This document shows positions 27-60,715 of a DNA stretch of 61,185 nt, piece by piece. The DNA is taken from positions 1 to 61,185 of the IMG/VR virus record IMGVR_UViG_3300010373_000049; one strand, written 5' to 3'. How positions within the stretch are numbered: the stretch's first letter is position 1; each line of letters begins with the position of its first letter. This DNA comes from a virus. Lineage: Duplodnaviria > Caudoviricetes. The notes beneath the pieces are model-generated. The model worked only from the letters and a program-made list of their open reading frames with translations. It was not told the origin of the DNA and ran no database searches. A program made the translations under genes and the position numbers.

Positions 27-239
27 GTGACCGACGTGGAGCAGGTGACGTTGAAATCCGGGCCGTCAAGAATCCACCTTCTGCACCACGTGCTCGACCT
101 TGACCCTGCCGGTGTCGCAACGTTCTGCGGGAAACTCGGGTTGCCGGCCGAAAGGTTGGGTTGGGCCACGTGCCACGCGTGCCGCAAAGCCGTCGAAGAA
201 CGGTCCATTCCGAACCAACCCACTTTGGGGCACGTGTGA
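27..239 (+). CDS. small hypothetical protein, possible Zn-binding (CGK...CHAC)
   Basis: GTG start overlapping an upstream TGA; coupled to next gene; Cys motif typical of small phage proteins. Confidence 0.5.
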   Translation: MTDVEQVTLKSGPSRIHLLHHVLDLDPAGVATFCGKLGLPAERLGWATCHACRKAVEERSIPNQPTLGHV

Positions 240-829
240 ACCCTCAGCACGGGACTTGCGCGTGTTACGTCGCGGGGTGCCGGTGTGACCGTTGTTCGCG
301 TGCCGCGGTCACGTACGAGGCGAAACGGCAGGTGCAACGCAACAGGGTCGGCCCTTTGCTGATCGACGCCACTCCCACCCGCGCGTTACTGGATTTGGCT
401 GTGGCCGCCGGGGTCACCTTGCGGGACGTGGCCGACCGGGGCGGCCTGTCCAGCCGCCACCTTTGGAACACTCGGCGCGGTGGCCACCCGTTGGTGCAAC
501 GACGCTGGGCGGCACGTGTCGAAACCGCGGTCCGGGAGTTGTGCGACGAGCGCCTCGCGGCGTTGGGGGCGCTGGGGGACCGTCTGGACTTTCTTGCCGG
601 TGACGTGGCACGCGGCCCTCACTGTTGGCCGACGAAGGACCTGTTGGATCACGTGGCTAGGAGAGGGATCGTGTTGCACACGGTTTTGGACGCGTCGGAC
701 CGCCGGTACTTGTACCGGAACAAACTTTTGGACACCGCCCGGGCGGACCGGATCTGTTTGGCGTTGGACGTGATGCCATCGGAGGTTTGGGACACGTGGT
801 TCGCGCTCGAGGAAGCGGAAGCGTCGTGA
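236..829 (+). CDS. HTH DNA-binding protein with N-terminal HGT..Y..GCRC..C motif
   Basis: HGTCACYVAGCRCDRC motif common in actinophage regulators, two HTH-like segments; start placed at GTGA overlap (ORF track starts at 161). Confidence 0.6.
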   Translation: MNPQHGTCACYVAGCRCDRCSRAAVTYEAKRQVQRNRVGPLLIDATPTRALLDLAVAAGVTLRDVADRGGLSSRHLWNTRRGGHPLVQRRWAARVETAVRELCDERLAALGALGDRLDFLAGDVARGPHCWPTKDLLDHVARRGIVLHTVLDASDRRYLYRNKLLDTARADRICLALDVMPSEVWDTWFALEEAEAS

Positions 830-2235
830 CGCAGGCCCGGTATCTCGTAGGCGACGTGTTCCACGCGCTCGGCACGTTGCCCGACGACAGCGTGGACCTG
901 GTGATGACTTCTCCGCCGTTCCTCGCGCTGCGGTCGTATCTGCCTGCCGAACACCCGGACAAGGGCAAGGAGATCGGCTCGGAGGCGACCCCCGCTGATT
1001 TCTTGGACACGCTGTTGGACGTGGTGGAAGCCCTTGACCGGGTGCTCGCCCCGCACGGCTCGATCTGCTTCGAGCTGGGTGACACGTACGCCGGAAGCGG
1101 TGGCGCTGGCGGCGACTACAACGCCGAGGGACTGCGGGCCGGACAGCAGAAGTTCAGCGGGTCAGCGGCCAAGCGGCGGCGAGAGGGGGTAGGCGACGAC
1201 TACAGGCCACCACGCGCCGGCCGTGGGCTCGGCTCCGCCGGCGGCAGAACGAGCCGTCCTGACGACGTGGCAGCGGGGCTGACGCACCCTCGATCACGAC
1301 CAGGGCCCGAGAGCCGGGATCATGTCGTCGGCTGGCCGATGGACAAGTCCCTCTGCGGGATCCCGACGTTGTTCGCCTGGTCCCTGGCCTACGGCCGCAA
1401 CCTGCTCCGGCCCGAGCGCCAGACAACCCCATGGCGCGTCAGGAACGTCGTGGCGTGGTGCCGGCCGAACCCGCCCGTCGGGGCGCTCAGCGACAAGTTC
1501 AGGCCCGCCACGTCCTACCTGACGATCGCCACTAGGGCACGTGACCGGTACTTCGATCTCGACGCGGTGCGGACCGACCCTTCCGACGTGAAAGACCGGC
1601 GGCACCGGACCACGAACGGGCCGAAGCAGGACGCGGACCCTTCGGTGGTGCTGACCGCGAACTACCACCAGCGCATCCCGTCCAACCCGGCCGGTGCTCC
1701 ACCGCTTGACTACTGGGTGATCCCGACCCAACCGTACGCGGGGTCGCATTACGCCACCTACCCGGAGGCTCTGTGTGAACGGCCGATCAAGGCCATGTGC
1801 CCGCTCAGAGTGTGCATCAGCTGCGGGGAGCCGTCACGGCGCATCGTGGACGTGGAGCACGTCCCGAACCGATCCACGAACGGGCCCCAGTCGATCGAGA
1901 GGAAATGGCTGGACGGCGGCTCGGCCGGTTACGACCAGAGGGCCGACCGCGTGACTACGACCGTGGGCTGGACGTGCTGCGGCTGCTGCTCCACCATCGA
2001 CCAGACCACACACAACACGGGCGACTCCTACTGCGGCGAAAACGAAGACCACTGGCGCCCGGGCCTAGTCCTCGACCCGTTCGCCGGCTCAGGCACAACC
2101 CTCGCGGTGGCAACCGGCCACGGCCGGGAGGCGATCGGCATCGACCTGGACGAGCGGAACGCCGCGCTGGCCCTTGACCGCGTGGGCCCGCTGTTGCTCA
2201 CCGTGGAGCACGTGGGCCAGAGGCAAGCGTCGTGA
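826..2235 (+). CDS. site-specific DNA methyltransferase, beta-class N4-C/N6-A, with Gly/Arg-rich and Cys-rich insertions
   Basis: motif IV TSPPF near N-terminus, H.ATYPEAL, motif I VLDPFAGSGTT near C-terminus, GIDLD. Confidence 0.9.
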   Translation: MTQARYLVGDVFHALGTLPDDSVDLVMTSPPFLALRSYLPAEHPDKGKEIGSEATPADFLDTLLDVVEALDRVLAPHGSICFELGDTYAGSGGAGGDYNAEGLRAGQQKFSGSAAKRRREGVGDDYRPPRAGRGLGSAGGRTSRPDDVAAGLTHPRSRPGPESRDHVVGWPMDKSLCGIPTLFAWSLAYGRNLLRPERQTTPWRVRNVVAWCRPNPPVGALSDKFRPATSYLTIATRARDRYFDLDAVRTDPSDVKDRRHRTTNGPKQDADPSVVLTANYHQRIPSNPAGAPPLDYWVIPTQPYAGSHYATYPEALCERPIKAMCPLRVCISCGEPSRRIVDVEHVPNRSTNGPQSIERKWLDGGSAGYDQRADRVTTTVGWTCCGCCSTIDQTTHNTGDSYCGENEDHWRPGLVLDPFAGSGTTLAVATGHGREAIGIDLDERNAALALDRVGPLLLTVEHVGQRQAS

Positions 2236-2405
2236 CCACGTGGACCACGTGTGACCGCTGTAAACGTGAATCCAAACACGTGATCCTGGCCTATTGGGGC
2301 GAAACGATTTGCTCTTCTTGTGTGCGTCTTCTTGTTGAGAGTTTCGACGCCAAAGGTTGTTGGCCTGAGTGCTGCTGGGATCAACAGAAAGGGGCGGCGG
2401 CTTGA
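2232..2405 (+). CDS. small Cys-rich hypothetical protein (57 aa, below ORF-track cutoff)
   Basis: GTGA-coupled to MTase; MTTWTTCDRCKR...ICSSC. Confidence 0.45.
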   Translation: MTTWTTCDRCKRESKHVILAYWGETICSSCVRLLVESFDAKGCWPECCWDQQKGAAA

Positions 2406-2514
2406 CCAGCCCAAACAAGCGTTCGACGTGGACTAGAATGCGGGGTGACAGAGTTGCACCCCGCGACGCTTGGAACGCCCGGGGTGCCGACCGGAACACA
2501 ACGGAGGTGTCCCG

Positions 2515-3036
2515 ATGGCGATAGATCCTAGCGACAATCCCTACTTTCGGACGGGTCGTCCGACGCTTTACCGCGCCATACAGATGCGGTCGCGTCTCGA
2601 GGCGTCCTGGGCCGCGTACCTAGACGACCTCAGGCTGGCGTGGGCGTACGAGCCGGTCTGCTTCGCGAGTGCCACCGGTCAGTACCTCCCCGACTTCCGT
2701 CTGGTCTACGAGAACACGACCTACTACGTGGAGATCAAGGGCGTCTTCGGCGACACTGAGGCTTTGCGCCGCCGGATGGAGATCGTTTGGGCTTCGGAGC
2801 CCACGGCCTACCTCGTTGCTCTTGAGGGCCCACCCCGGACACCTGGCACACCAGAGGACCAAGGCGAGTGGGATCAGTGGTGGTGGCAGTGCAAGGGCTT
2901 CATGCGCGGCTGGCAGACCACATGGACAGACGGACACGGGATGCGCTCGTGGGAGCTGTATCCCGGTGGAGATCCCTACGAGACCCTTGACTACGAAGTT
3001 CTCCTTGAGGGGTCGGACTACCCGCCGTGTGGGTGA
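2515..3036 (+). CDS. PD-(D/E)XK nuclease-fold protein
   Basis: RSRLEASWA..W.YEP..YLPDF..EIKG motif; GGAGG RBS before ATG 2515. Confidence 0.75.
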   Translation: MAIDPSDNPYFRTGRPTLYRAIQMRSRLEASWAAYLDDLRLAWAYEPVCFASATGQYLPDFRLVYENTTYYVEIKGVFGDTEALRRRMEIVWASEPTAYLVALEGPPRTPGTPEDQGEWDQWWWQCKGFMRGWQTTWTDGHGMRSWELYPGGDPYETLDYEVLLEGSDYPPCG

Positions 3037-10591: not shown

Positions 10592-11077
10592 ATGAGCAAC
10601 GTTCAGCCTTTCCGTCGTCGTGAGGCCCAGCCGTATGGGCCGGGGAATCGGGAGTCGGTGAAGCATGGGGCGTTTTCGGCGCGGGTGATTGATGAGAAGT
10701 CGCGTGAGGTTCATGCGGAGTTGATGGCTGCGTGTGTGTGGGTGGATGAGCCGGATGTGGTGGCGGTGGACACGTGGTGTAAGGCGAAGGCCCGTTACGA
10801 CTTGTTGAACGATTGGGTGATGTCGATTGCGTTGGGGGAGCGCGATGTGGTGACGAAGCGGGGGATTTTGTCTGGGGTTGATGCGGTGCCGGCGTATTTG
10901 TGGGGTGAGGTGTCGAAGGCGGAGTCGAATCTGATGAAGGCGACGGAGTCGTTGGGGTTGGACCCGACTGGTCGTGCGCGGTTGATGAAGGATTTGGGGA
11001 TGGCGAAGCATTTCGCTGCTGATGGGGTGCGCGAGTTGGTGTCGCGTGGGCGGGAGTTGCGTCGGGGTTCTGTTTGA
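10592..11077 (+). CDS. terS: terminase small subunit
   Basis: GN..S.KHGAFS N-terminus, LGLDPTGRARL C-terminus; upstream of TerL; GGAGG RBS. Confidence 0.8.
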   Translation: MSNVQPFRRREAQPYGPGNRESVKHGAFSARVIDEKSREVHAELMAACVWVDEPDVVAVDTWCKAKARYDLLNDWVMSIALGERDVVTKRGILSGVDAVPAYLWGEVSKAESNLMKATESLGLDPTGRARLMKDLGMAKHFAADGVRELVSRGRELRRGSV

Positions 11078-11289
11078 CCTGGTCGGAGATTCCGCAGGCC
11101 GTCCCGGCGCGTGCGGTGAGGCCGAACAGACACCAGATCATTGTGCGAGGCACGGAGCACACTGTTGTGCGCCGCTCGTACACGTCGGCGAAGCCGGACC
11201 GGATCACTTTCGGGTTGGAGCACGAGCAGGACGTTGAGGTGGCTCTGGACGATTACCTGCGATGCTTCGTCCTCGTTGTTGACCTGTGA
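11074..11289 (+). CDS. small hypothetical protein between terminase subunits
   Basis: TTGA and GTGA overlaps with both neighbours. Confidence 0.5.
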   Translation: MTWSEIPQAVPARAVRPNRHQIIVRGTEHTVVRRSYTSAKPDRITFGLEHEQDVEVALDDYLRCFVLVVDL

Positions 11290-12887
11290 GCGACGCGGCG
11301 TTGGACCTCATGTGGGCGTTGCGCCTCGAGGACGGCCGCTGTTGGGGTGAGCAGGCTGTCGACGAGCAGAAGGCGGACGCGGAGGCGATCATCGGTGGGG
11401 GGGTCGGCCCTCACCGCCATTTTTGTACCCGGCCTCGTGGCGGGTCGAAGACGACGGACCTTGCGGGGGTGGCGTTGTCGTGGTTGGCGGTTGACGCCCC
11501 GTTGCGTGCCCGCGGGTATGTGGTGGCGTCGAACGGTGAGCAGGCCGGGATTCTGATCGACGCCGCGGCGTCGCTGGTGGCCCGCACGCCGGAGATCGAC
11601 GGGCTGTTGACGGTCGAGAACGAGAAGATCGTCGCCCCGAACGGTGCGTGGATTCGCATCCTGAACCTGTCCGATTCGGGCGCGTGGGGGCTCAGGGACG
11701 CCCACCTGTTGATCTTGGACGAGTTCGCCCAGTGGCCCGAGACACGTGGCGCAAAAAGGGTTTACACGGCGGTCCGCACGACGGTCCAGAAGACGCCGGG
11801 GTGCCGCCTGGTGATCCTGACATCGGCGGGCGAGCCGTCGCACTGGTCGCACGAGATTTACCGTTCCGCCCAGGACGACGACACGTGGCGGGTGTCGGAG
11901 ATGCCGGGCCCGGTCCCATGGCAGGACCCGAAAGAGATCGACGCCCTGCGCCGGGAGCTGCGCCCGTCGGAGTTCGACCGGCTGGTGTTGAACGTGTGGT
12001 CGGAGGACGAGGACCGGGCGATCTCCCCCGAGGATTACGACATCGCGGCCCGCAAACCGGTTGCCACGTCTGTGGCGCCCGTCGGGTTGACCGGCGGCGG
12101 CTGGACCCTCCGATACCCGCGTGCGGGCGTCAAGTACGTGATCACGGTGGACATCGGCACGAAGAATGACGCCACGGTGATGGTCGTCGCCCACTCCGAA
12201 CCTGTCGACCCTGCTATCCCACGTGGCGCACAGAAAGCGGTCGTGGACCACCTGGAACGCTGGCGTGGGTCCCGCAAACGTCCGGTGCAACTGGCGGACG
12301 TGGAGGAATGGCTGGCCGCCCAAGCCCCGAGATGGAACCGGGCGGAGGTCCACGCCGACCCCGACCAGTTCGTCGGGTCGTTACAAAACCTGAACCGCCG
12401 ACGGGTCAAAGCGCACGAGTTCACTTTCTCGGCCACGTCGGTCGGCCAGGTCGCCACAGCCTTGGTGCAAGCGTTCCGTAACCGGCAGGTCGAGATCCCC
12501 GATAACGCGGCGCTGAAAGAGGAACTGTTGCGTGTCCGCCTGCGCGAGACCGCCCCGGGGGTCACAAGGTTGGATCACGACAAGAACGGCCACGACGACC
12601 AGGCGGTCACCATCGGCATGGCCTGCCACCTGCTTCTCGCCGGCACCGCCTCCCCTTCGGCGGCGTTCGTGGAGATGATGAAACGCAAGATCGCGGAACG
12701 CGAAACGAACCCGAGTGCCACCCAGGACCGCCAGACAGCCCGGTTCAACAAGCAGCTCGCCGCGGCACGTGGCAGACCGCAACGGGCGCGTGAGCGGGCC
12801 CAGAAGGTTTGCCAGCACCGTTGGAGGCCCTCGACGAACGAGTGCGCCTACGGGTGCGGGGCCGTCCGCGACGACGTAGCCAGCTAA
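11286..12887 (+). CDS. terL: terminase large subunit
   Basis: Walker A RPRGGSKTT, Walker B LLILDE, LTSAG coupling motif, nuclease VDIG and HDD. Confidence 0.9.
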   Translation: MSDAALDLMWALRLEDGRCWGEQAVDEQKADAEAIIGGGVGPHRHFCTRPRGGSKTTDLAGVALSWLAVDAPLRARGYVVASNGEQAGILIDAAASLVARTPEIDGLLTVENEKIVAPNGAWIRILNLSDSGAWGLRDAHLLILDEFAQWPETRGAKRVYTAVRTTVQKTPGCRLVILTSAGEPSHWSHEIYRSAQDDDTWRVSEMPGPVPWQDPKEIDALRRELRPSEFDRLVLNVWSEDEDRAISPEDYDIAARKPVATSVAPVGLTGGGWTLRYPRAGVKYVITVDIGTKNDATVMVVAHSEPVDPAIPRGAQKAVVDHLERWRGSRKRPVQLADVEEWLAAQAPRWNRAEVHADPDQFVGSLQNLNRRRVKAHEFTFSATSVGQVATALVQAFRNRQVEIPDNAALKEELLRVRLRETAPGVTRLDHDKNGHDDQAVTIGMACHLLLAGTASPSAAFVEMMKRKIAERETNPSATQDRQTARFNKQLAAARGRPQRARERAQKVCQHRWRPSTNECAYGCGAVRDDVAS

Positions 12888-12906
12888 GCCGAGGAGGCAC
12901 AACCGT

Positions 12907-15900
12907 ATGCGTTTGCCGATCCTCGGTCGCCCGCGCCCGTTAGACCCCGAACAGAAAACGCGCCTGGTCGAAACCGCGGTCAAGGTGGCACGCGACCCGC
13001 GTCTGCTCGGAACTTTGGAGCCGTCGGACCGCAACCGGGTCGACGAACTTTCCAAAGCTCTAGGGAACGCGCACGCGTCGTTCAACGGTCCACGTGCCTC
13101 ACGCCAACCGCGCCCAATCTCAGCCCAGGCTCTCGCTCAGCGTGCCGCCGCGTCGCTGCAACCGTCGTCGTCGATCACACCCGCCGATATCGAAGCGGCC
13201 ATGCTCGCCCAAGGGCTCGACATGGTCGCCCCGTTCGCCCCCGGCAGCCCCTTAACGCCGTACTACGGGTACGGGCGCCAGCCGCGCATCTTCGATTACG
13301 AGATCGCGCGGAACACGACCACCCAAACACGCCCGGACCGCATCCCCTTCGACACGCTCCTGCACCTGTGGAAAGCGTACGACGTGGCCCAGGCGTGCAC
13401 CCGCTACTCCATCAACGACCTGCGCTCCATGCGGATCAGGTTCACGGCGATGGAAGGCCACGAGGACAACCCGGTCAAAGAGATCGCCGAGGCCAAAAGG
13501 TTCCTTCGTAAGCCGGACGGCAAAAGGTTCTTCCGTAACTGGTTGGCGATCAACCAGCGCAACCTGTGGATCTTCGACTCCGCACCCATCTACCGGTACA
13601 AGGTCCGCGGGAAACTGGACCGGCTCATCAACGTCTCGGCGATGACGATCGCCCCGATGATCGACTACTACGGTGACATCCCCGAAGGCGCCGCCCCCGC
13701 CTACCAGCAGTTCATCGAGGGCGTCCCGTGGGACTGGTTGAACGCCGAAGACATCATCTACGAGCCGTTCTGGCCCGAAACCGACTCCCCCTATGGGACG
13801 CCTCCGTTGGAGACGGTGCTCGTCAACGCGAACACCGACCTGCGGCTGCAAATGTACTTCCTCGACTTCTTCACGAAGGGTGCGATCCCCGAGATGATCG
13901 CGATCGCCCCGGAGGGCATGACCGACCCGGACGCGATCGCCGAGCTTGAGGAAACGTACGACGCGTGGACCCAAGGGGACCAGGCGGAACGGTGGGGTTT
14001 GCGTTGGTTGCCGAACGGCACCGAACTCGAACCGTACAAGCCCGACCATTTCGACCCGGACCTCGCCGAGTACGTGATGCGGCGCACCGTCGCCGCGTAC
14101 GGGCTCACCCCCCAGAACTTGGGCATCCTCGACGATGTAAATAGGGCCACATCGGACACCCAAACCGACCAGCAGTTCCGTGTGTCCACCCTGCCGGTTG
14201 TTGGCTACTACGAGGACCTGCTCGACGCCGTGTTACAGGACGACCTGTCGCTGCCGGTCCAGGTGCGTTTCGACACCGGACGGGAGAAAGAGGACCGTCT
14301 GACCGAGGCGAAAGCCTGGTATGTGGCGTGGCAGATGGGTGCCGTGTCCTCCGACGAGTACCGCGACAAGGTGATGGGACTCCCGATAGACCTGGAGAAC
14401 CCCAACCCGCGCACCGTCGACTCGCAACGGTTGGGTCCCGTGCCCCTGTCGTACCCGCAGGAGATTTCCGGGCCGATCAACCCGCTCACGTTCTCACCCT
14501 CGGAGAAACCGGAGCATTACCGCGATTACGTGGTCCCCGGGTCGAACAACCCCGACCCGATAGAGGCCGCGAACGGTCAGGACGAGGCGGCGTTGCCGGT
14601 GGCCGGCAACCCAAAAGCCCAAGCCCCGCAGGGGGCGTCTCGGCAAGGCAGCAGCGCCGCCAGCAAAGAAGCCAGGCCCGGGCAGATGCCCGGCGCACCG
14701 GAACCCAACGCGGTAGCCAACCCCGAAGGACCACAAAACCCTGACGAGGTTGGTTACGGGTGGTTCGACTCGCAAGGGTCGGCCGCGCAAGGCACGGCGG
14801 CGATCCGCGAACGTGACGACCTGACCAAATGGAGGGCGAACGCACGCAAAGCGGTAGCCAAGGGCAAAGCCCCCCGGCGGTTCGCTGATTCGGCGATCCG
14901 CTCGGGTGTTGAGGCACGCGTCTGGGAGGCGCTGAAAGGTGCCAGGTCGCGCGAGGACGTGGACTGGGCGTTCAAGACGGCACAACCCCAAGCTGCCGGT
15001 GTTGTGGTCCAAGCGGCGGACACCGGTCGTGTGCTGATGGTGCAGCGCACCCCCGACAAGCACGACCCGCAAGAGGCGTACGCCCGATGGGAGTGGCCGG
15101 GCGGCAAGCTCGACCACGACGGCGACACCCCCTGGTCTGGTGGTCTGCGCGAATGGTCCGAAGAGACCGGGGCTCAACTGCCCGACTCTTTTGAGCACGT
15201 GGGGAACTGGACCTCACCTGACGGTGTGTACGTCGGATTCGTCGTCACCGCCCCCACCGAGACGGACATCAACCTGGACCCGGACGGGTCCGAGGTGTCG
15301 AACGCCCGCTGGTGGGACAAGGCCGACCTCGACGACCCGGAAGTGCGCGACAAGGTTACCGATACGTTGGACCGTGTGACCCCCCTCCTGAAAGGTTGGG
15401 CAGACCAACCCCGCGGCAAGGGCGCCAAGTGGCGCACCCAGGCGCATGTGGACTGGGAGCAGTTCCACCGTCACACCGACCGGATAGTCGAACATTACGC
15501 ACCGCTCGTCCAAGAGGCGATGGCGCACGTGGTCGACCCTGTTGCGATACGCCAAGCGTTGGACGACGCGTACACCCGGCCGGCGAAGATCACCAAGGCC
15601 GCCGCCCACTACCGGCCGGCGACCCTGCCGGGCGTGAACTGCCACGAGTGCACGTTCATGCACCCAGACGGGACGTGCACCAAAGTGAAAGGCAAAGTCG
15701 CCGCGGACCACGTGTGCGACCTGTTCCAAGCGGACACCGCCGAAAAGGCATTGGGCGACGCGTGGCGCACCCTCCTCGCCAGCGCACAGCGGGCCGTGCA
15801 GGCACTCAGGGACGTGCTGGCACGAATCTACGGCGACGGGTACATGCAAGGCTCCCATGAGGCCGCGCAAGCGTCCGGTGGGGAAATGCCGCCGTGGACG

Positions 15901-16395
15901 GCGACGGTCGCTGCGAACGTCGACTGGGGCACGTGGAACCCCGGACTCGGTGACGCAGCAGCCAAAGTCGCCAACGGTGGGCTCGCACAACTGCTCACGG
16001 AACGTGACATTTGGATCAAGGACATCACCGACACCCAGGTCGGCCGGATCGGCGACGCAATAGCCGAAGGCATCCGTGAGGGGTTCCCTGTCCGCAAAGT
16101 GCAGGCCGAGATCGACCAGATCGTGAACGACGCCGACCGTGCCTACCTAGTGGCCGAAACTGAGTACGCGAGGGCTGTGGGACAGGCGGCGATGGACACG
16201 TACAGGTTGAACAACGTTCCCGAGTTGACCTGGTTGGCCGAGCCGACAGCTTGCCCACGTTGCAAGGAAAACGAGGCGGCGTCGCCGCAGCCGACGGTGA
16301 ACCCGCAGTGGCCGAACGGCCCGATCCCCGTGCACCCCCACGAAAGGTGCGCCGTGGCCCCGCTGATCCGAGTCCCGACTAGGAGAACCACGTGA
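12907..16395 (+). CDS. portal protein fused to NUDIX hydrolase, HiPIP-like 4-Cys domain and MuF/gp7-like head morphogenesis domain
   Basis: portal motifs (YGTPPLE, FFTKGAIP, AAYGLTPQNLG, NRATS); NUDIX box GGKLDHDGDTPWSGGLREWSEETG; CxxC-x8-C-x12-C; MuF C-terminus ETEYARA..W..CPRC..PVHPHERC. Confidence 0.85.
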   Translation: MRLPILGRPRPLDPEQKTRLVETAVKVARDPRLLGTLEPSDRNRVDELSKALGNAHASFNGPRASRQPRPISAQALAQRAAASLQPSSSITPADIEAAMLAQGLDMVAPFAPGSPLTPYYGYGRQPRIFDYEIARNTTTQTRPDRIPFDTLLHLWKAYDVAQACTRYSINDLRSMRIRFTAMEGHEDNPVKEIAEAKRFLRKPDGKRFFRNWLAINQRNLWIFDSAPIYRYKVRGKLDRLINVSAMTIAPMIDYYGDIPEGAAPAYQQFIEGVPWDWLNAEDIIYEPFWPETDSPYGTPPLETVLVNANTDLRLQMYFLDFFTKGAIPEMIAIAPEGMTDPDAIAELEETYDAWTQGDQAERWGLRWLPNGTELEPYKPDHFDPDLAEYVMRRTVAAYGLTPQNLGILDDVNRATSDTQTDQQFRVSTLPVVGYYEDLLDAVLQDDLSLPVQVRFDTGREKEDRLTEAKAWYVAWQMGAVSSDEYRDKVMGLPIDLENPNPRTVDSQRLGPVPLSYPQEISGPINPLTFSPSEKPEHYRDYVVPGSNNPDPIEAANGQDEAALPVAGNPKAQAPQGASRQGSSAASKEARPGQMPGAPEPNAVANPEGPQNPDEVGYGWFDSQGSAAQGTAAIRERDDLTKWRANARKAVAKGKAPRRFADSAIRSGVEARVWEALKGARSREDVDWAFKTAQPQAAGVVVQAADTGRVLMVQRTPDKHDPQEAYARWEWPGGKLDHDGDTPWSGGLREWSEETGAQLPDSFEHVGNWTSPDGVYVGFVVTAPTETDINLDPDGSEVSNARWWDKADLDDPEVRDKVTDTLDRVTPLLKGWADQPRGKGAKWRTQAHVDWEQFHRHTDRIVEHYAPLVQEAMAHVVDPVAIRQALDDAYTRPAKITKAAAHYRPATLPGVNCHECTFMHPDGTCTKVKGKVAADHVCDLFQADTAEKALGDAWRTLLASAQRAVQALRDVLARIYGDGYMQGSHEAAQASGGEMPPWTATVAANVDWGTWNPGLGDAAAKVANGGLAQLLTERDIWIKDITDTQVGRIGDAIAEGIREGFPVRKVQAEIDQIVNDADRAYLVAETEYARAVGQAAMDTYRLNNVPELTWLAEPTACPRCKENEAASPQPTVNPQWPNGPIPVHPHERCAVAPLIRVPTRRTT

Positions 16396-16727
16396 TCGTC
16401 GCGATGGACATGGACGGGACGATCGGCGCGGACCCCGAGTATTACCGGTCCGAGATGCGCGGTCTCATGGACCGTGGACATCAGGTTCACGTGCTCACCG
16501 GCAACCCGCAAGCACAGCACGCGCTCGCCCAGTTGGGGATGGTCAAAGGCCGCGACTTCACTCACGTAGCCGTTGTCCCGGAGAAGCACATAAGCCGGTT
16601 CAAGGTGGCCTACATGCGCCACGTCGGCGCCACACACCTGGTCGACAATCGCCGCAAGAACGTGAAGGCAGCGCAGAAGGCCGGGTTCACCGCCCACCAC
16701 CACATGAGTCCGAAGAGGGAAGACTGA
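16392..16727 (+). CDS. HAD-superfamily hydrolase (capless)
   Basis: MIVAMDMDGT motif I, LTG motif II, conserved K, VDN motif IV. Confidence 0.75.
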   Translation: MIVAMDMDGTIGADPEYYRSEMRGLMDRGHQVHVLTGNPQAQHALAQLGMVKGRDFTHVAVVPEKHISRFKVAYMRHVGATHLVDNRRKNVKAAQKAGFTAHHHMSPKRED

Positions 16728-17083
16728 TGGCGACACGCGCAACGTTGGCAACAATCGTGGCGGGCACCGCCGTCACCGCCGAGAAGATTCTCTCCTTGAG
16801 CACGTTCGCGGTGGAGACGGTCGTGGTCGGCATCACCGTGACCGCCGTGTCCGGCACGTCCCCCACCCTCAACGCCTACCTCGAAGTGTTGGGGTCGGAC
16901 AACGTGTGGTACCAGGTGTGGAAAACCGGGTCGAACATCACCGCCGCAGGCCAAACGGTCGCCGTGGTCGGGCCGATCTCGTCCACGAACCCTGCCGCGT
17001 GGACCAACAGCGGCCGCCTGCGGCTCGAGGTTGGCGGCACCACCCCGTCGTTCACTCTGTCCGCCACGGTGTTCGGCAACTGA
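16727..17083 (+). CDS. small beta-rich putative virion (decoration-like) protein
   Basis: Thr/Val-rich; VTAVSGTSPTL..LRL..GGTTPSFT. Confidence 0.55.
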   Translation: MATRATLATIVAGTAVTAEKILSLSTFAVETVVVGITVTAVSGTSPTLNAYLEVLGSDNVWYQVWKTGSNITAAGQTVAVVGPISSTNPAAWTNSGRLRLEVGGTTPSFTLSATVFGN

Positions 17084-17256
17084 CATGGGGTTCAACCCTT
17101 CGCGCCGTCTGAAGCGCACCGCGATGCGCGCCTACGGGTGGACGGGCGACGACCCGAAATCCGGCCGGAAGCGCGGGTTGGCGAGAGCCAACGCTGAGCG
17201 CAACGTGGCACTCGCCAAGCGCGCTCTCGGCACTCGCGCAGGGAAGTGAGCCGGAG

Positions 17257-17838
17257 ATGTGCGCGAGTTGCGGGTGCCGGCAGCCAACCCAACGCCATCC
17301 TGGCGCCGCGTCGATCACCTGGCAGGACATTGAGGCAGCGGCAGACGACGCACATCTAACACCCGAGCAGGCGGCAGAGAACATGGTCGACGCAGTGCAC
17401 CAAATGATGTCCAAGGCGACTGTCGTACGGAAGTCCGACGAGTCCCGGTTCCTGCTAATGGTCGGCTACTCGCCGAACCGTATGCCGCTCAAAGGTGCGG
17501 ACGGGTACGTGGACATCGCCTCCCCGGACCTGATCGAGAAAGCCTGCTGGCGGTTCATGGCGAACGGTGCGGGCGCGGGGCTGATGCACAAGGCTGGCGG
17601 CGAGAACGCGTTCCGGGTGGTCGAAAACAGTGTGTATCGGGGGCCTGATTGGACGTTCATCGCAGCGGACGGGTCGGAGCAGACCATCCGTAAGGGCGAC
17701 TGGCTGATCGGGGTCATCGCATCTCCCGAAGTGTGGGAGGACTACAAGAAAGGCGTCTACGGCTCCGGGTCGTTGCAGGGTTCCGCGAAACGGATGGACC
17801 CCCGACCGGAGACCCTGGCAAGACAGAGGAGTAGCTGA
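17257..17838 (+). CDS. XkdF-like putative prohead protease
   Basis: D..S...IEKACWRFM...GLMH..VVE..IRKGDWLIG..VWE..KKG...S..G. Confidence 0.75.
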   Translation: MCASCGCRQPTQRHPGAASITWQDIEAAADDAHLTPEQAAENMVDAVHQMMSKATVVRKSDESRFLLMVGYSPNRMPLKGADGYVDIASPDLIEKACWRFMANGAGAGLMHKAGGENAFRVVENSVYRGPDWTFIAADGSEQTIRKGDWLIGVIASPEVWEDYKKGVYGSGSLQGSAKRMDPRPETLARQRSS

Positions 17839-19349
17839 TGACGATCACCGAGTTCGAGGATCTTGATCCCAACGAGTTCCATCTTGTCCCGAAGGGGGCG
17901 TCCGGGTTCCCGGTCCTGCTCGCCAAGGCCGTGGACGAGGCGGTCGAAGACGAACTGTTCAAGTCTGAGACCGACGTTTACAAGAAGGATTACTCGACTG
18001 CGGAACGACGCAAGCTTGCCAGCGAAGGCAACGCCTTGTCGAACGGTTCGTATCCGATCGCAGACACCGAGGATCTGCACAACGCGGCCGTCCTAGCGCG
18101 TTCCGGGCACGGTGACGTGGCTGGCGCGAAACGACTGATCGCACGACGCGCAAAGGAGCTAGGGGTGTCCAACCCACTCGATAAAGACGATGACGCCGAG
18201 AAGCAGACGGCACCTGACAAGTCGGTCCCCGAGACGGAAGCCCTCTCGCAGACACGCGAGTGCGAACCCGAACCCGAGGGTCCGTCACCGGACAACGAGG
18301 ACCACGGCGAACCCAAAGCCGTGTCATTCCCTCACGGTCCACGTGGCGACGGACAAGGTGACACAGCCCCCGACAAGGCCGACGATGAGTCGGGAGCCGA
18401 GGCGCAGACCCGCGACGACATCGAGGGGAACGCCGCGAAGGCCGACGTGGACATGACCGGCGACACCGCCCCCGACAAGGACTTGCACGAGGACGAGGCC
18501 GAGTCGCAAACCGATGATGCCGACGACGACGACTCGGACGCCCCCGACTCGGGTGGAGACGGGAACCCGCCGTGGGCACGCAAAGAGGCAGGGGACGCCG
18601 AGTGGGAAGACCACGACGCCGCCCTCGCCGCACAGATCGAACGTCTCGCCGCCGAACTTGAGGCGCGGGAGAAAGCCGAAGGTGGGGCCGAAAAGTCCCG
18701 TCTAGGAGAGACGGAGGGAGCCATCCGTCAGGCAATCGAGGCCCTACGAGGTCTCGCGAACACCAACCAACCCTCTGTCTCTAAGGAGATTGAAACAATG
18801 AACACCGACGAGCTGATGAAGTTGCTCGACGAGCGCGACGAAGCTCGTCGGGAGGCCAAGAAGGCCGCCAAGAAGGAAGCCCGCAAAGCGGAGCGGAAGG
18901 CCGCGGAGGCAGCCGAAGAGGCTGCGAAGGCGGCAGGCGACAACGAGGGCGACGCCGCGAAGGCCGCCGACTCCCAGATCGCCTCGCTCCAGAAGCAGAT
19001 CGACGAACTGTCCGCGAAGCGGCCGTTCGTGAACGGCGTGGGCGTCGCGGCGGTCCTGCGTGGCCCCGAGGCCGAAACGGCCCTCAAGTCGTTCGACGAT
19101 CGTGTCGCGACGGCCGAGTCGAAGATGGAGAAGGCGGTCAACGACTACCAGCGCCAGCAGGCCAAGACCGAACTTGAGGCGGCGCAGCGTGCGCGTTTCA
19201 TGGCGAAGATGGTCGCCCAGGCTACCGCCCATGAGCGGGGAACTCTCCCTTCGGGGCGTTTCGGGCGCAACCAGATCGCTCTGTTCGGTGATCGCGAAAA
19301 CTGCACCACGTTCTCGCTGCCTGAGGACACCGCCGTCAAGGCGCTCTAA
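17838..19349 (+). CDS. capsid scaffolding-like protein (DUF6582-like domain, acidic linker, coiled coils)
   Basis: ERRKLA..G.AL..GSYPI..DL.NA domain; long D/E-rich and coiled-coil segments; between protease and capsid. Confidence 0.65.
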   Translation: MTITEFEDLDPNEFHLVPKGASGFPVLLAKAVDEAVEDELFKSETDVYKKDYSTAERRKLASEGNALSNGSYPIADTEDLHNAAVLARSGHGDVAGAKRLIARRAKELGVSNPLDKDDDAEKQTAPDKSVPETEALSQTRECEPEPEGPSPDNEDHGEPKAVSFPHGPRGDGQGDTAPDKADDESGAEAQTRDDIEGNAAKADVDMTGDTAPDKDLHEDEAESQTDDADDDDSDAPDSGGDGNPPWARKEAGDAEWEDHDAALAAQIERLAAELEAREKAEGGAEKSRLGETEGAIRQAIEALRGLANTNQPSVSKEIETMNTDELMKLLDERDEARREAKKAAKKEARKAERKAAEAAEEAAKAAGDNEGDAAKAADSQIASLQKQIDELSAKRPFVNGVGVAAVLRGPEAETALKSFDDRVATAESKMEKAVNDYQRQQAKTELEAAQRARFMAKMVAQATAHERGTLPSGRFGRNQIALFGDRENCTTFSLPEDTAVKAL

Positions 19350-19439
19350 GCCCTCACAACCAAATCGCTTCCTCACCGGGGGAGCCCGCGTCGCAAGGCG
19401 CGTCCGGTGGCAACCAACTCTCAACAGGAGGAAACCACC

Positions 19440-20966: not shown

Positions 20967-21087
20967 TTAACGAATCCCATCGGCGCTGGAGCCCTAACCA
21001 CGCGGCGCTGAGCAACGTTCTTGGGTGGGTGGCGCGGCTGGCTCCGTCGCGCCGCCCCCCGAGAACCCCTCCAAAAAGGAGTCACCG

Positions 21088-21429
21088 ATGCATTTGAAGT
21101 TTTTTACGGCTGTCCCACAGCCGGTGCCAGACCCGATGCGGCCGAACCGGACCGTGAACGTGACACGCCTGAGAGACGCGTGCGCCTCGTCGCACGTGGA
21201 CGAGAACGGGGTCACGTACAAGCCGGACGAGAACGGGTGGTTCGACTTCCCCCAGGACGTGGCCGAACGGTTGCGCCGCTTCCGCAACAAGGGGTCCGGC
21301 TGGTTCGCCGAGGGCGAGATCGCCGACGCGGTGCGCCTGGGGCGCGCCGAGCGTGACACCGACGACCGCCCCCGCCACCAAGAAACCCCGAAGCGGGCCC
21401 CGGGGCGACCCCGCAAAGAGGACGGCTAG
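21088..21429 (+). CDS. small head-associated protein
   Basis: AAGGAG RBS; C-terminal KRAPGRPRK. Confidence 0.55.
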   Translation: MHLKFFTAVPQPVPDPMRPNRTVNVTRLRDACASSHVDENGVTYKPDENGWFDFPQDVAERLRRFRNKGSGWFAEGEIADAVRLGRAERDTDDRPRHQETPKRAPGRPRKEDG

Positions 21430-21910: not shown

Positions 21911-21920
21911 GGAGGACCGG

Positions 21921-22967: not shown

Positions 22968-22968
22968 C

Positions 22969-23750: not shown

Positions 23751-23755
23751 TCACA

Positions 23756-46579: not shown

Positions 46580-46960
46580 CCCGTATCGCTACCCGTATTT
46601 CCCGTGAAAACAGGCGGACTCCCTGAAACCGCACCCCCTTTTACCTGCGGTTATGCGGACCACGTGTGCCGGGCGTAAGCGTGGAAGCCCACTCATAATC
46701 CTTTGGTCGTGGGTTCGATCCCCACCGGGCCCACCAGGTAGACGGCGGTTTTTGGGGTTCACCGGCTAGGCTTTCCCCAAACGATACCCGTATTTCGGAT
46801 CGAGGCGTGCGGCACGTGGGACGAAAACGCAAGGTGGACACCGACCTCCCGGAAGGGATCAGGCGTGGCAAAACGCCCGGCACCCTGGAGGTCCGGGTGT
46901 CCCTACCGCCGGCCACGGGGGCGGACGGGAAGCGCCGGGCGCGCGAAGTTACCCGTATCG
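46580..46960. repeat. integrase arm-type-like direct repeats (TA)CCCGTAT
   Basis: CCCGTATC 46580, TACCCGTATTTC 46590 and 46785, TACCCGTATCG 46950, on both sides of the att core. Confidence 0.6.
46691..46736 (+). other. attP core: 3' half of a tRNA with CAT anticodon (probably tRNA-Ile2, possibly Met)
   Basis: ACTCATAATCCTTTGGTCGTGGGTTCGATCCCCACCGGGCCCACCA: anticodon loop, perfect T arm, CCA; 5' half absent; 70 bp upstream of integrase. Confidence 0.85.
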
Positions 46961-47994
46961 TCCACGGCGGGATACGGGAAGCGAAGGCCGTCCGGGCTGC
47001 GATGCTCACCAAACGGGACCTCCAGTCGGGGTCGGACGGGTCGCTCACCCGCCAGGTCAGCCGGTGGATCGACTCGATCGAGGCCGACCATTCCCCGAAC
47101 ACGATCAAGAACTACCGGGGGTACCTGCGCCGCTACATCGCCCCGGAGGTCGGCACGTGGAAACTGCACCGTGTCACCACCAGGGGTTTGGACGACTTCT
47201 ACGCCGGCCTGCACCGCAAAGGGTTGTCCCCGGCGACGGTCCGCCAGTGCCATTCGATTATCCGCAAAGCGTTGAGCGAGGCTGTCAGGCAGGGGGAACT
47301 GGGCGCCAACCCGGCGACCAACGCCCGCATCCCACGTTTGGACCCCCGCGAGATCGAACCGCCCGACCCGGCCCTGTACCAGCGGATCTACGACCAGGCT
47401 TGCGCCCGGCGCGACGGGGACATGACCTTGGCGACGTTCATCCGCACCGCGGCGGGGACCGGGGCCCGGCGCGCGGAGGTGTGCGGGCTGAGACTGTCCG
47501 ACATTGACGCCACCGGCCAGTCGCTACTGATAGCCCGGGCGATCGTTGACCACGACGGCAAGCTCGAGGCTAGGACCACGAAGTCGAAGAAACCGCGGCG
47601 GATAGCGGTCGACCCGATCGTCGCCGACTCGCTGACCGCCCAGATCCGTTACATGCACAACCGGGCCCGTTCGGTCGGTGTCGACCTGGCCCCCGACGCC
47701 TACGTTTTCTCCGACGAGCTGGACGGGTCGGTGCCGTGGCGCCCGGACCGGGTGTCGTTGGCGTTCTACCGGTTGTGCCGGACCCTGGGGGTGAAGGTCA
47801 GGTTGCACGACCTGCGCCACATGCACGCCACCCAGCTTCTTTCCCTCGGCTACGACGTGCGAACCGTGTCCGGTCGCCTGGGTCACGCCCAGCCCGCGGT
47901 CACGTTGAACGTGTACGCCCATTTCGTCCCGGCGGCGGACCGGGCCGCGGCGGACGCTCTGGCGGGGGTGTTGCACACCCCGGCGCTGCCCTAG
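46807..47994 (+). CDS. int: tyrosine integrase
   Basis: TGARRAEVCGL, LHDLRH, LGH...TLNVYAH catalytic R-H-R-H-Y; SAM-like core-binding domain. Confidence 0.95.
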   Translation: MRHVGRKRKVDTDLPEGIRRGKTPGTLEVRVSLPPATGADGKRRAREVTRIVHGGIREAKAVRAAMLTKRDLQSGSDGSLTRQVSRWIDSIEADHSPNTIKNYRGYLRRYIAPEVGTWKLHRVTTRGLDDFYAGLHRKGLSPATVRQCHSIIRKALSEAVRQGELGANPATNARIPRLDPREIEPPDPALYQRIYDQACARRDGDMTLATFIRTAAGTGARRAEVCGLRLSDIDATGQSLLIARAIVDHDGKLEARTTKSKKPRRIAVDPIVADSLTAQIRYMHNRARSVGVDLAPDAYVFSDELDGSVPWRPDRVSLAFYRLCRTLGVKVRLHDLRHMHATQLLSLGYDVRTVSGRLGHAQPAVTLNVYAHFVPAADRAAADALAGVLHTPALP

Positions 47995-58445: not shown

Positions 58446-58646
58446 GTGATGCAGAGCGTGACTGATCTAGTCAAAGTGCTCAGGGAATGGGCTGCCAGCG
58501 AAAGGAAGACGGCGGACACAACCCCAGGTGAGTCGCACGCGGTCAGCGTCTTCAGGTCAGCCCGCCACGCCGCCGCCTCCGCCTATGAGAAGGCCGCCCG
58601 CCTGATCGAAGAAGCCGAGGGGCAAAAGTCAGGTGAGTCCGATTAG
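58446..58646 (+). CDS. small hypothetical protein
   Basis: GTGA-coupled; ends GQKSGESD in junction repeat. Confidence 0.5.
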   Translation: MMQSVTDLVKVLREWAASERKTADTTPGESHAVSVFRSARHAAASAYEKAARLIEEAEGQKSGESD

Positions 58647-58650
58647 CGCG
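58620..58650 (+). repeat. 31-bp gene-junction direct repeat, copy 1
   Basis: GGGCAAAAGTCAGGTGAGTCCGATTAGCGCG; 30/31 identical to 60142-60172. Confidence 0.9.
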
Positions 58651-59235
58651 AACGCTGCCCATAGGTTCAACAACGACCTGCGCTACAGCGACGGGACGGA
58701 TGACCGTCACCGCCAACTGACGCCCGAGTACGTGCTGGAACCCGTGCGAGCGGTCCTGGGTGGCATCGACCTAGACCCATGCACGGAACCCGACAACCCG
58801 ACAGGGGCCGACACGTTCTACACCGTCGAGGACGACGGGCTATTTGAGCCGTGGTTCGGTCCCGACTGGCTGCCGACTGTCTATGTAAACCCGCCGTACA
58901 CGAAGGCTCGCGAGCCGTGGGTCAGGGCGTGCATGGAGGCCGCCGCACGCGGCCAGAAGGTCGTTCTGCTGGTCCCGTCGCACACGGACACCCGCATCTT
59001 CCAGAAGGCCATGCAGAGCGCCACCAGCGTCCTGTTCATCAAGGGCAGGGTGAAGTTCGGGGTACTGCGGAAGAACCGCCGTCAGGAGGCAGCTAGCCAT
59101 CCGTCCGCGCTGATCGCTTGGAACGTCGACCTGGGTCCGTGCTCCAAGCTCGGGCATGTCGTCAGGCAGAACGCAATCACGTGGTTCGAGTGGGCCGAGA
59201 AGGCCCAAGGGCAAGAGGGGAATGATGCGGAGTAG
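58633..59235 (+). CDS. phage N6-adenine DNA methyltransferase (Dam-like)
   Basis: TP..V..IDLDPC..DDGL...W..YVNPPY..LLVP..TDT..F..F.KGRVKF. Confidence 0.85.
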   Translation: MSPISANAAHRFNNDLRYSDGTDDRHRQLTPEYVLEPVRAVLGGIDLDPCTEPDNPTGADTFYTVEDDGLFEPWFGPDWLPTVYVNPPYTKAREPWVRACMEAAARGQKVVLLVPSHTDTRIFQKAMQSATSVLFIKGRVKFGVLRKNRRQEAASHPSALIAWNVDLGPCSKLGHVVRQNAITWFEWAEKAQGQEGNDAE

Positions 59236-60004
59236 CGCGTATTACGAGGACGAACTGGTCACGCTGTATTGCGGAGACAACGCAGTCGTGCTGCCCGAGC
59301 TAGAGCCTGCTGACCTGATCTTCACGTCCCCGCCGTACAACCTCGGCTCGTCCCCCTGGCCTCATCTCGGGCACTGGAAGCCGGGCGACTCGCCGGGCGG
59401 CAAGAGCAAGTGGAAGAACGGCTCAGACGGCTCAGGAGGTGTCACCTATGCCGAGCATGAGGACACCCTGCCGTGGGACGAGTACGTCGCTTGGCAGCAC
59501 AAGGTTCTGCGGCTCTGCTGGGACAGGCTGACCGCCGGCGGTGCCATCTTCTACAACCACAAGCCAAGGGTCATCGGCGGCCGGTGCTGGCTTCCACTCG
59601 AACTGAACCCCGGTTTGCCGCTCCGACAGATCGTGACGTGGGCGCGAGCCGGTGGCATGAACTTCAACCCGACCGCCTACGTGCCCACCTACGAGTGGAT
59701 CATGGTCCTCGCCAAAGACGACTTCCGGTTGTCCAGCAAGGCGGCATCGGGGCTAGGGGACGTGTGGCGGGAACCGCAGGAGCCGAGCGACCACCCGGCA
59801 CCGTTCCCGGTGGGGTTGCCCGCCAGAGCGATCGAAACCACGGGCCCGGGGCTGGTCATAGATCCGTTCGTGGGGTCGGGTTCGACGCTGGTGGCAGCCA
59901 AGGCGGCCGGGGTGCGGGCCATCGGTATCGAGAAGTCGGAGCGGTATTGCGAGATGGCCGTCAAGAGGCTGGCGCAGGAGTCACTGTTCGGGGTGGGCGC
60001 ATGA
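59222..60004 (+). CDS. beta-class N4-C/N6-A DNA methyltransferase
   Basis: TLYCGD, TSPPYN, HPAPFP, DPFVGSGST, GIE. Confidence 0.9.
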   Translation: MMRSSAYYEDELVTLYCGDNAVVLPELEPADLIFTSPPYNLGSSPWPHLGHWKPGDSPGGKSKWKNGSDGSGGVTYAEHEDTLPWDEYVAWQHKVLRLCWDRLTAGGAIFYNHKPRVIGGRCWLPLELNPGLPLRQIVTWARAGGMNFNPTAYVPTYEWIMVLAKDDFRLSSKAASGLGDVWREPQEPSDHPAPFPVGLPARAIETTGPGLVIDPFVGSGSTLVAAKAAGVRAIGIEKSERYCEMAVKRLAQESLFGVGA

Positions 60005-60168
60005 TGCCGGGACGAATCTTGTGCCCGTCACCGCCTGACCGTGGGCCGTGCGGGACGTGCCATCACGACGCCCTGCCGCATTGGGTTGGCGAACCGGGAG
60101 GCTGCGAGATGAGGGGCTGTACCTGCACCGTCTATCGAGCCGGGCAAAAGTCAGGTGATTCCGATTAG
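60001..60168 (+). CDS. small Cys/His-rich protein
   Basis: CGTCHH..H..C..GCTC..Y; ends GQKSGDSD in junction repeat. Confidence 0.5.
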   Translation: MMPGRILCPSPPDRGPCGTCHHDALPHWVGEPGGCEMRGCTCTVYRAGQKSGDSD

Positions 60169-60172
60169 CGCG
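60142..60172 (+). repeat. 31-bp gene-junction direct repeat, copy 2
   Basis: GGGCAAAAGTCAGGTGATTCCGATTAGCGCG. Confidence 0.9.
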
Positions 60173-60715
60173 GATTCTGTCTGGCAGGGTCTACACCCGC
60201 CGTACAAGACCATTGTCGCTGACCCGCCATGGAAATACGAGCAGGGCGGCCCGACGACCGGCTTCGCACCTTTGCGGCCACCGCCGTACTCAATGATGCC
60301 GGCCAGCGAGATCGCTTGTCTACCCGTCGAAGACCTCGCCGACGACGACGCGCACCTTTACCTGTGGACGACAAACCGCTATCTCCGGCAGGCGTTCTCT
60401 ATCGTCGAAATGTGGGGATTCAAGCACTCGCAGACGCTTACATGGTGCAAGCCGGCGCAGGGAATCGGGCCCGGCGGCGCGTTTTCGAATACGACCGAGT
60501 TCGTCCTATATTGCCGGCGCGGGAAGCTCGCCTATCAGGGGCGCGTCGATACGACATGGTGGCAATGGCCGCGCGGCGCTCATTCGGTTAAGCCGGCGGC
60601 GTTCCTTGACATTGTCGAGCACGTGTCGCCGGGCCCATATGTGGAACTGTTCGCCCGCGCCCCTCGTCTCGGTTGGGATTCGTGGGGCAAAGGATTCGAG
60701 ACGGAGGTCGCATGA
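60155..60715 (+). CDS. MT-A70-family methyltransferase
   Basis: IVADPPW, AHLYLWTT, WGF, TW.K, TE, HS.KP, ELFAR..GWD.WG. Confidence 0.9.
   Translation: MIPISADSVWQGLHPPYKTIVADPPWKYEQGGPTTGFAPLRPPPYSMMPASEIACLPVEDLADDDAHLYLWTTNRYLRQAFSIVEMWGFKHSQTLTWCKPAQGIGPGGAFSNTTEFVLYCRRGKLAYQGRVDTTWWQWPRGAHSVKPAAFLDIVEHVSPGPYVELFARAPRLGWDSWGKGFETEVA

Follow-up and report, generated by a model that had tools for sequence, protein, structure and literature searches.

For three decades, hyper-iterated palindromes (HIPs) have posed an unsolved problem in cyanobacteria, where a whole chromosome and several methyltransferases hinder dissection. As described in the parts of Elhai 2015 (PMC4390886) on which we draw, HIP1 (GCGATCGC) and alternate HIPs such as GGCGCC in Calothrix PCC 7103 are short GC-rich palindromes, gross outliers among words and dispersed through coding and non-coding DNA at ~0.5–2.5 sites per kb; the genomes encode DNA methyltransferases, every alternate HIP in cyanobacteria having a cognate one, and the cause is debated between selection and methylation-linked repair. 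Here we describe a signal of the same kind, at higher density, in a virus. The IMG/VR record IMGVR_UViG_3300010373_000049, analysed over its entire linear length of 61,185 bp (the window), carries 187 dispersed copies of the hexamer CACGTG between positions 87 and 60625, or 3.06 per kb. Tentatively, and with confidence somewhat short of even, we favour the reading that positive selection has acted on CACGTG as a mark used in cis by this phage lineage, likeliest in a form methylated by the phage's own enzyme. As the signal is restricted to one temperate phage of 61 kb, with just four methyltransferases to test, and relatives without signal or enzymes are available for comparison, the choice between selection and a ratchet, and the search for a reader, become directly testable.

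The resemblance to HIPs has limits. HIPs belong to cyanobacterial chromosomes, whereas CACGTG lies in a virus and was not found enriched in its candidate host order. The window is without a cytosine-5 methyltransferase, and the methyltransferases it does encode are only candidates for CACGTG. Unlike what the cited parts of the HIP literature describe, its one-off variants show no end bias after correction and its spacing is not periodic; and CACGTG, a 6-mer, stands in a genome from which other palindromes are largely purged. HIP1 itself shows no enrichment in the window (5 copies against 2.1 expected).

Other short words are multiplied by machinery that is better understood. In E. coli, Dcm/Vsr very-short-patch repair raises CCWGG, an example of a methyltransferase-linked repair enzyme inflating its own palindromic target, but the effect is far smaller, and it needs a 5-methylcytosine (m5C) methyltransferase and Vsr and depletes T-containing neighbours, none of which we found in the window. 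The stoperators of Cluster A mycobacteriophages are likewise short actinophage motifs scattered in genes and intergenic DNA, and are read by a phage protein; they are, however, asymmetric sites of ~13 bp in a few dozen oriented copies, whereas here a 6-bp palindrome is present 187 times, and the intergenic region of the immunity genes is free of it. DNA uptake sequences and Chi are also hyper-abundant short words, kept by recognition machinery with a small effect per copy, but they are non-palindromic, oriented and enriched in host chromosomes, whereas CACGTG is not dense in the sampled genomes of the candidate host order.

Full-text literature searches returned no account of CACGTG, or of any palindrome, hyper-iterated in a phage, in agreement with an earlier annotation of this DNA (the initial annotation), which knew of no description for actinophages; the supplementary tables of PMC4390886 may list over-represented hexamers. 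A passage of PMC7911831 places CACGTG among the palindromes absent from a halovirus.

An excess of one palindrome at the DNA level

The excess of CACGTG is confirmed. It is the commonest of all hexamers in the window, which has a GC content of 64.3%, and its ratio of observed to expected copies (O/E) is 9.0 against the 20.8 predicted by base composition (zero-order), the next palindrome reaching only 2.1. The initial annotation had arrived by hand at about 185 sites where about 20 were expected, a roughly 9-fold excess, and its tallies for successive 10-kb intervals are right within one (computed 50, 16, 8, 38, 32 and 43). The near-tandem pairs it listed (2237/2246, 36231/36239 and 40822/40829) are real and are joined by a fourth at 36426/36435. 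One hundred dinucleotide shuffles gave a mean of 42.7 copies and a maximum of 59, and an order-3 Markov model predicts 72.8. The word CCACGTGG occurs 42 times in the window against 2.15 expected.

Controls that respect coding lead to the same result. Our gene set comprises 90 heuristic calls made in this analysis and scanned with Pfam, PHROGs and NCBIfam. Within these genes lie 145 CACGTG sites, against 52.3 ± 5.6 (maximum 70) in 300 synonymous shuffles that kept the protein sequences and 23.3 ± 4.6 in 300 codon-order shuffles. Against the synonymous shuffles CACGTG has the highest z of any hexamer (15.5) and ACGTG the highest of any pentamer (20.7). As the initial annotation had proposed, sites occur in all three frames and between genes, in each case above expectation: 54, 29 and 62 per frame against 27, 2.7 and 22.6, and 40 in the 8,338 unassigned bases against 5.1 ± 2.3 in first-order Markov simulations, an eightfold excess that gives a density of 4.8 per kb in unassigned DNA against 2.7 per kb in genes.

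It is very improbable that composition, codon usage or a general avoidance of palindromes yields the word as a by-product, or that it is an artefact of assembly. Extreme palindrome avoidance does distort word usage, and the codon-aware and low-order Markov controls that the initial annotation called for are exceeded while a maximal-order Markov model is not, its O/E being 1.00 (187 against 187.4). A value near 1 after control for shorter words is literally what the initial annotation had named as a refutation. We do not count it as one, because most copies of CACGT and ACGTG sit in the motif, which accounts for 63% and 55% of them; the model is saturated, and the excess shifts one level down, to CACGT (O/E 1.65), ACGTG (1.56) and ACGT (1.30). 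Against a by-product stand the codon-aware shuffles, all of which fall short of the 145 sites observed (maximum 70), the rare codon pairs that build the word and the eightfold enrichment of unassigned DNA. Membership of a dispersed repeat was considered and rejected, since the flanks outside the core carry little information, and an assembly artefact is contradicted by near-identical DNA in runs of several independent soil studies.

CACGTG is the one word that escapes and reverses a strong palindrome avoidance in this genome. That the phage otherwise depletes palindromes, as the initial annotation had assumed of phages in general, is borne out in the window: AATT occurs once against 61.6 expected, and twelve 6-bp palindromes are absent, six of them (GACGTC, AGCGCT, AGGCCT, GAGCTC, GCATGC and TCCGGA) with ~21 expected each and six AT-richer ones with ~6 each; for GACGTC the expectation ranges from 21 to 51. 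The phage thus obeys the palindrome-purging rule to an extreme and breaks it for exactly one word. The lack of AATT suggests that AATT-cutting restriction weighs on this phage group. AATT is also missing from two related prophage-like contigs of Acidimicrobiales genomes, G013:C168 (0 against 26) and G678:C17 (0 against 12.7), and occurs 365 times against 306 in a sample of the Acidimicrobiales genome G006. Phages related through the large terminase subunit (TerL) carry GACGTC freely, with 18–22 copies in 10–21 kb. Judged by synonymous shuffles, the coding tetramer of the window with the strongest enrichment is GAAC/GTTC (778 against 558, z 13.6), and GATC is also raised (337 against 268, z 6.6).

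The pressure can be read from codon choice. Outside the head-tail module (10685..32529), His-Val is written CACGTG in 48 of 61 cases, where codon usage predicts 22.7; x-Thr-[Cys/Trp] contains the motif in 48 of 60 (13 expected); and [SPTA]-Arg-[VADEG] takes the form of the rare NCA-CGT pair in 18 of 67 (1.1 expected). By our own arithmetic these three classes of synonymous choice give odds ratios of ~6 to 22, which would correspond to a scaled advantage of about 2–3 per site. Density is 4.7 sites per kb in 1-10684, 3.8 in 32530-61185 and 1.3 in the head-tail module, where the tape measure gene (26121-29330) has zero. Within the module, [SPTA]R[VADEG] is written NCA-CGT-G in 11 of 41 cases (0.7 expected); because this bias is equal to that elsewhere, the lower density there reflects tighter protein constraint and not a weaker pressure. 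Outside the module, His-Val occurs at 5.8 per 1000 residues against 2.15 expected, a 2.7-fold over-use, and His, Trp and Cys are more frequent; there CACGTG appears to have shaped the protein sequences themselves.

Relatives give the direction of change. In a codon comparison of conserved residues between the window and the relatives G013:C168 and L006, seven CACGTG sites fall on residues conserved with a relative, and at six of the seven the relative is without the motif purely by synonymous difference. At one such position the window reads ACA-CGT-GGG where both relatives use the common codons ACC-CGC-GGC. Enrichment in all frames and between genes, together with synonymous shifts to rare codons, means that it acts at the DNA level, and the enriched condition is a derived, lineage-specific state.

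Exact word, symmetric flanks and candidate enzymes

The one-off variants of CACGTG bear on how the word came to be so common. The initial annotation held that such variants look abundant, and GACGTG/CACGTC indeed has 164 copies in the window, but this is no separate signal: in genes the pair counts 142 against 100 in synonymous shuffles while GACGTC counts 0 against 39.7, so the excess is what the total avoidance of GACGTC leaves behind. The transition neighbours lie at the expectation of the same shuffles (CATGTG/CACATG 19 against 20.4; TACGTG/CACGTA 35 against 32.5), and z is 2.2 for AACGTG and 0.5 for TACGTG. Raw counts of one-nucleotide deviations look biased towards the ends of the word, a bias that is gone after correction for GACGTC. 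With no neighbour enriched or depleted, selection on the exact word fits better than a conversion drive.

The flanks carry a symmetric preference. Across 374 half-sites, G at −4 has a frequency of 0.56, G at −3 0.49, C at −1 0.48 and A at −5 0.09, compared with 0.33, 0.31, 0.32 and 0.17 in control hexamers of the same composition, and the preference is also seen at 43 intergenic sites. Left and right flanks are uncorrelated, and flank information is at most 0.2 bit per position. A hairpin or cruciform extension of the palindrome was considered and rejected, as there is no excess potential and the palindrome is not extended beyond chance; the pattern looks like two independent half-site contacts. 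Spacing is near exponential (coefficient of variation 1.2, Kolmogorov–Smirnov p 0.14), and no periodicity or regular spacing was detected.

Such flanks could be expected of an unmethylated binding-site array, in which an abundant DNA-binding protein, encoded by phage or host, would use CACGTG as its operator, for example as an architectural or coating protein or a stoperator-like silencer. The symmetric 14–16 bp context with independent half-sites, the higher density in unassigned DNA (4.8 against 2.7 per kb) and the many small phage proteins without assigned function all favour this idea. However, no candidate binder was found among the annotated proteins, 187 copies of a 6-bp core far exceed known operator arrays, the Xre/Cro intergenic region (48867-48997) is free of CACGTG, and each flanking position holds little information. 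We consider an array of this kind unlikely.

The initial annotation named four methyltransferases as candidate writers of the word, and their presence in this actinophage is supported by Pfam matches and a motif IV in all four, each encoded on the plus strand. Methyltransferase 1 (826..2235; PF01555, 3e-26; PDB matches weak) is of the beta class (N6_N4) with motif IV SPPF and a Cys-rich insert. Near the right end lie a Dam-family N6-adenine methyltransferase with motif IV NPPY (58633..59235; PF05869, 1.6e-19), the beta-class methyltransferase 3 with SPPY (59222..60004; PF01555, 9.5e-30), whose closest solved relative is a DNA cytosine-N4 methyltransferase (PDB 8s9m, 9.9e-21), and an MT-A70-family methyltransferase with DPPW (60155..60715; PF05063, 2.1e-21). 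An SPP[YF] motif IV marks N4-cytosine enzymes, and by this motif two of the four amino-methyltransferases are N4-cytosine-like. Their link to CACGTG is another matter: 94 viral loci with homologues of the four (28–76% identity) have a median CACGTG O/E of 0.16, none is enriched, and the largest O/E among those of more than 5 kb with several sites is 1.9.

Three CACGTG sites lie within 46 bp (2237..2282) between methyltransferase 1 and a gene for a small PD-(D/E)XK-type nuclease (2515..3036, plus strand), which adjoins the methyltransferase gene after this stretch. The nuclease, with 157 homologues, belongs to a family common in metagenomic contigs. A fold search with its AF2 model (pLDDT 90) gave weak generic matches to the nucleases Bax1, Hjc and RecU (best E 2.8e-3) and no MutH- or Vsr-like fold, and NCBIfam adds nothing. 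A six-frame search of the window for m5C methyltransferases (PF00145) and Vsr (PF03852) gave zero matches in a record whose completeness is estimated at 68%.

A competing reading is a neutral ratchet, in which methylation-coupled biased repair or gene conversion would turn near-cognates into CACGTG and leave the word functionless, a model that the cited parts of PMC4390886 put forward for HIP1 and alternate HIPs. Methyltransferases are present, a nuclease adjoins one of them, the pressure is felt in every module including accessory genes, and spacing is random-like, all as a ratchet would have it. Yet no class of neighbours is depleted, neither CATGTG/CACATG nor TACGTG/CACGTA; the deviations are not end-biased once GACGTC is corrected for, unlike those of HIP1 as far as that source describes them; the nuclease is of a common family without a MutH- or Vsr-like fold; and a ratchet does not predict the flank preference. 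We therefore regard it as unlikely. Its Dcm/Vsr variety, one form of the methylation-directed biased repair suggested in the initial annotation, has no support, with neither an m5C methyltransferase nor Vsr in the window, nor depleted transition neighbours.

Relatives, probable hosts and soil variants

The comparison with related phages proposed in the initial annotation shows that they do not share the enrichment, which is absent from all 16 TerL relatives. Two IMG/VR contigs with 57% TerL identity hold 5 and 3 copies of CACGTG in ~10 kb each, 14 metagenomic relatives (31–68% identity) hold 0 to 4 each, and all are at or near expectation. The prophage-like contigs G013:C168 and G678:C17 contain 8 copies against 16 expected and 5 against 7.3. 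Homologues in the relatives are limited to the head-tail module, and the un-enriched relatives have no tblastn match to the four methyltransferases. Among cultured phages no match was found by megablast of 20 kb or by tblastn of TerL and the lysin-like protein; among viral contigs there were no related loci for a 682-aa protein or for the portal fusion; and a TerL alignment gave no match in genome contigs, although a later HMMER search of Acidimicrobiales genomes did. A scan of viral contigs for three clustered CACGTG sites returned at least 119 stretches, and the dense ones that were followed up were chance or local tandem arrays. One unrelated 40.7-kb IMG/VR contig (L040) carries CACGTG at multiples of 12 bp at both ends, with 26 copies in the first 0.9 kb.

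A tRNA attachment core, which the initial annotation had suggested as a route to the host, does exist. The attP core (46691..46735, plus strand) lies just upstream of the integrase gene and reproduces the 3′ portion of a tRNA-Met(CAT) gene exactly; ARAGORN found zero tRNA genes in the window itself. A 35-nt piece of the core has an exact match in one of 185,579 species genomes, the Acidimicrobiales metagenome-assembled genome G006, where it lies within a gene that ARAGORN calls as tRNA-Met. Contigs of three soil runs extend leftwards from 46691 into what appears, from a by-eye comparison with the tRNA-Met of L141, to be the 5′ half of the tRNA gene, one of them being a single base off the G006 tRNA-Met over 30 letters; these contigs look like empty attB sites. 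The HMMER search for TerL in 401 Acidimicrobiales genomes found a match in eight, the best (65% identity) in G013 and G024, and G024 and G006 are members of one four-genome family. Taken together, the tRNA-Met match and the prophage terminases place the host, very probably, among the Acidimicrobiales. That G006 is the host strain itself is improbable, since its palindrome profile is uncorrelated with that of the phage (rho 0.05); its GC content is 57% against 64%.

The sampled genomes do not carry the word at anything like the density of the phage. G006 counts 247 copies of CACGTG over 2.2 Mb and 285 of the reversed word, the four genomes of its family have 0.08–0.18 per kb against 3.06 in the phage, the maximum among 201 Acidimicrobiales genomes is ~0.57 per kb, and five genomes with related prophage terminases have 0.17–0.37. 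For CCACGTGG, the densest of 401 Actinomycetota genomes reaches ~0.13 per kb, where the phage has 0.69. The 201-genome tally includes four unpublished genomes and the 401-genome tally 15, and we make no claim on any single one of the four. In most sampled genomes of the host order CACGTG lies at or below the reversed-word control, and in none is it dense. In four Acidimicrobiales genomes, G076, G045, G136 and G049, it is nearly absent (8, 13, 30 and 41 copies against 353, 53, 363 and 65 for the reversed word), and near-absence in some members suggests that CACGTG-specific restriction exists in the group.

A host-wide motif, which the initial annotation had allowed for, was thus not found in G006, its family, the 201 genomes of the order, the 401 of the phylum or the five prophage-related genomes. 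It remains conceivable that the phage mirrors a composition inherited from, or driven by, its true host or that host's repair system: the phage is temperate (integrase, attP), the modules exchanged among its variants are all enriched, and the link to G006 is a 35-nt tRNA match to a genome 7 GC points lower, and the real host lies outside the sampled genomes. As no sampled genome comes near the phage density and related prophage contigs are un-enriched, we judge this quite unlikely.

This is a real phage with a wide distribution. Part of a 10-kb stretch of the window turns up in 20 runs spanning 11 studies, and all organism-labelled runs are soil metagenomes; six runs contain at least half of the sampled words, and one of these six may be the source sample. 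Among the runs listed none is RNA. Contigs from three other studies match at 99% identity or more over long pieces on 36–56 kb, with mosaic differences (40 of the 162 differing places were listed). Two variants lack the gene at 36851-37207 (DUF6527), with 36849-37203 of the window missing and the joint at a CGTGA start/stop overlap, and in one variant the integrase-immunity cassette at 46561-49916 is swapped for a different 3-kb cassette. Both variable pieces are motif-rich in the window, with 4 and 9 copies of CACGTG, which argues that the pressure is common to the gene pool with which this phage exchanges. The idea that mosaic joints fall at CACGTG is not convincing, since a site is touched at one joint out of three or four, through the CGTGA overlap.

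A possible phage mark and other features of the genome

An exact word, undepleted neighbours, a symmetric half-site context and costly codon pairs together argue for positive selection on a recognition site. A factor associated with the phage, sequence-specific and of two-fold symmetry, would recognize the CACGTG core with weak flanks (G at −4, G at −3 and C at −1 of each half-site), and each added site would confer a small advantage. Sites would then build up where the encoded proteins tolerate them, at first by synonymous changes and later, in less constrained proteins, by amino-acid changes that create His-Val, Thr-Trp and Thr-Cys. The likeliest form of such a mark may be dense methylation by one of the phage amino-methyltransferases, two of which are N4-cytosine-like candidates; by analogy with cyanobacterial HIPs, which come with a cognate methyltransferase, we take a phage-written methylation mark to be the most plausible option. 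It would set phage DNA, at 3 sites per kb, apart from host DNA, at ~0.1–0.5 per kb, and could be used for protection, for choosing the strand to repair, for packaging or for attacking host DNA selectively.

Phage density exceeds that of the sampled Acidimicrobiales chromosomes 6- to 40-fold and that of the candidate family 17- to 38-fold, a contrast of the kind that a self/non-self mark would need. A virus-encoded self-mark, in which a dense array of palindromes carrying N4-methylcytosine or N6-methyladenine is read by a phage factor to tell phage from host DNA, is possible but doubtful. Were it true, it would for the first time extend hyper-iterated palindrome systems to a virus and beyond the cyanobacteria, and it would have arisen in a genome otherwise cleared of palindromes. 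The initial annotation's broader proposal, a phage or host system that creates or selects CACGTG, holds in so far as the enrichment lies at the DNA level, and finds no support as a Vsr-type repair drive or, in the genomes sampled, as a host-wide motif.

Several points weigh against a positively selected, methylated mark. Methylation cannot be read from sequence; nothing links any of the four methyltransferases, or the neighbouring nuclease, to CACGTG; the 94 viral loci bearing methyltransferase homologues are not enriched; and the annotated proteins yielded no reader. The sites fall at random-like intervals, whereas the cited parts of the HIP1 literature give a quasi-periodic spacing, and the maximal-order Markov model leaves no excess. 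The true host genome lies outside those sampled, G006 being lower in GC and unlike the phage in its palindrome profile. Finally, the gene calls are heuristic, and the case rests on one lineage.

Beyond the methyltransferases, gene content makes the window that of a temperate siphovirus-like actinophage, for which CheckV estimates a completeness of 68%. By Pfam and PHROGs, the head-tail module, on the plus strand, encodes TerL (11286-12887), a portal-NUDIX-MuF fusion (12913-16395), a protease, a tube protein, the tape measure and minor tail proteins; in the fusion, portal, NUDIX hydrolase and Mu F-like domains are joined in one reading frame of 1160 aa. A tyrosine integrase (46834..47994, plus strand; PF00589, 6.8e-19; phrog_1, 2e-60) marks the phage as temperate. 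Further genes encode a lysin-like glycoside hydrolase, an Xre/Cro pair, an exonuclease with RecT, WhiB, RusA, a dNMP kinase, a DUF4406 deoxyribosyltransferase-like protein and a metallophosphoesterase.

Actinophage matches at 30–55% identity were found for RecT, the metallophosphoesterase and a phrog_15773 protein. The closest cultured-phage matches of the RecT-like protein (55888-56820), which outscore those to actinophages, are to cyanophages (Microcystis phage Mae-JY09, 55% identity; Synechococcus phage S-H1, 45%). A second frequent word, TCGTCCACGGTCA, is unrelated to CACGTG and belongs to a 24-bp coding tandem repeat, present in 16 exact copies at 50910-51282 and encoding an 8-residue repeat. 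The gene that contains it (50802-51722) matches phrog_15773 and DUF7666 and, weakly, the Gp5 C-terminal beta-helix.

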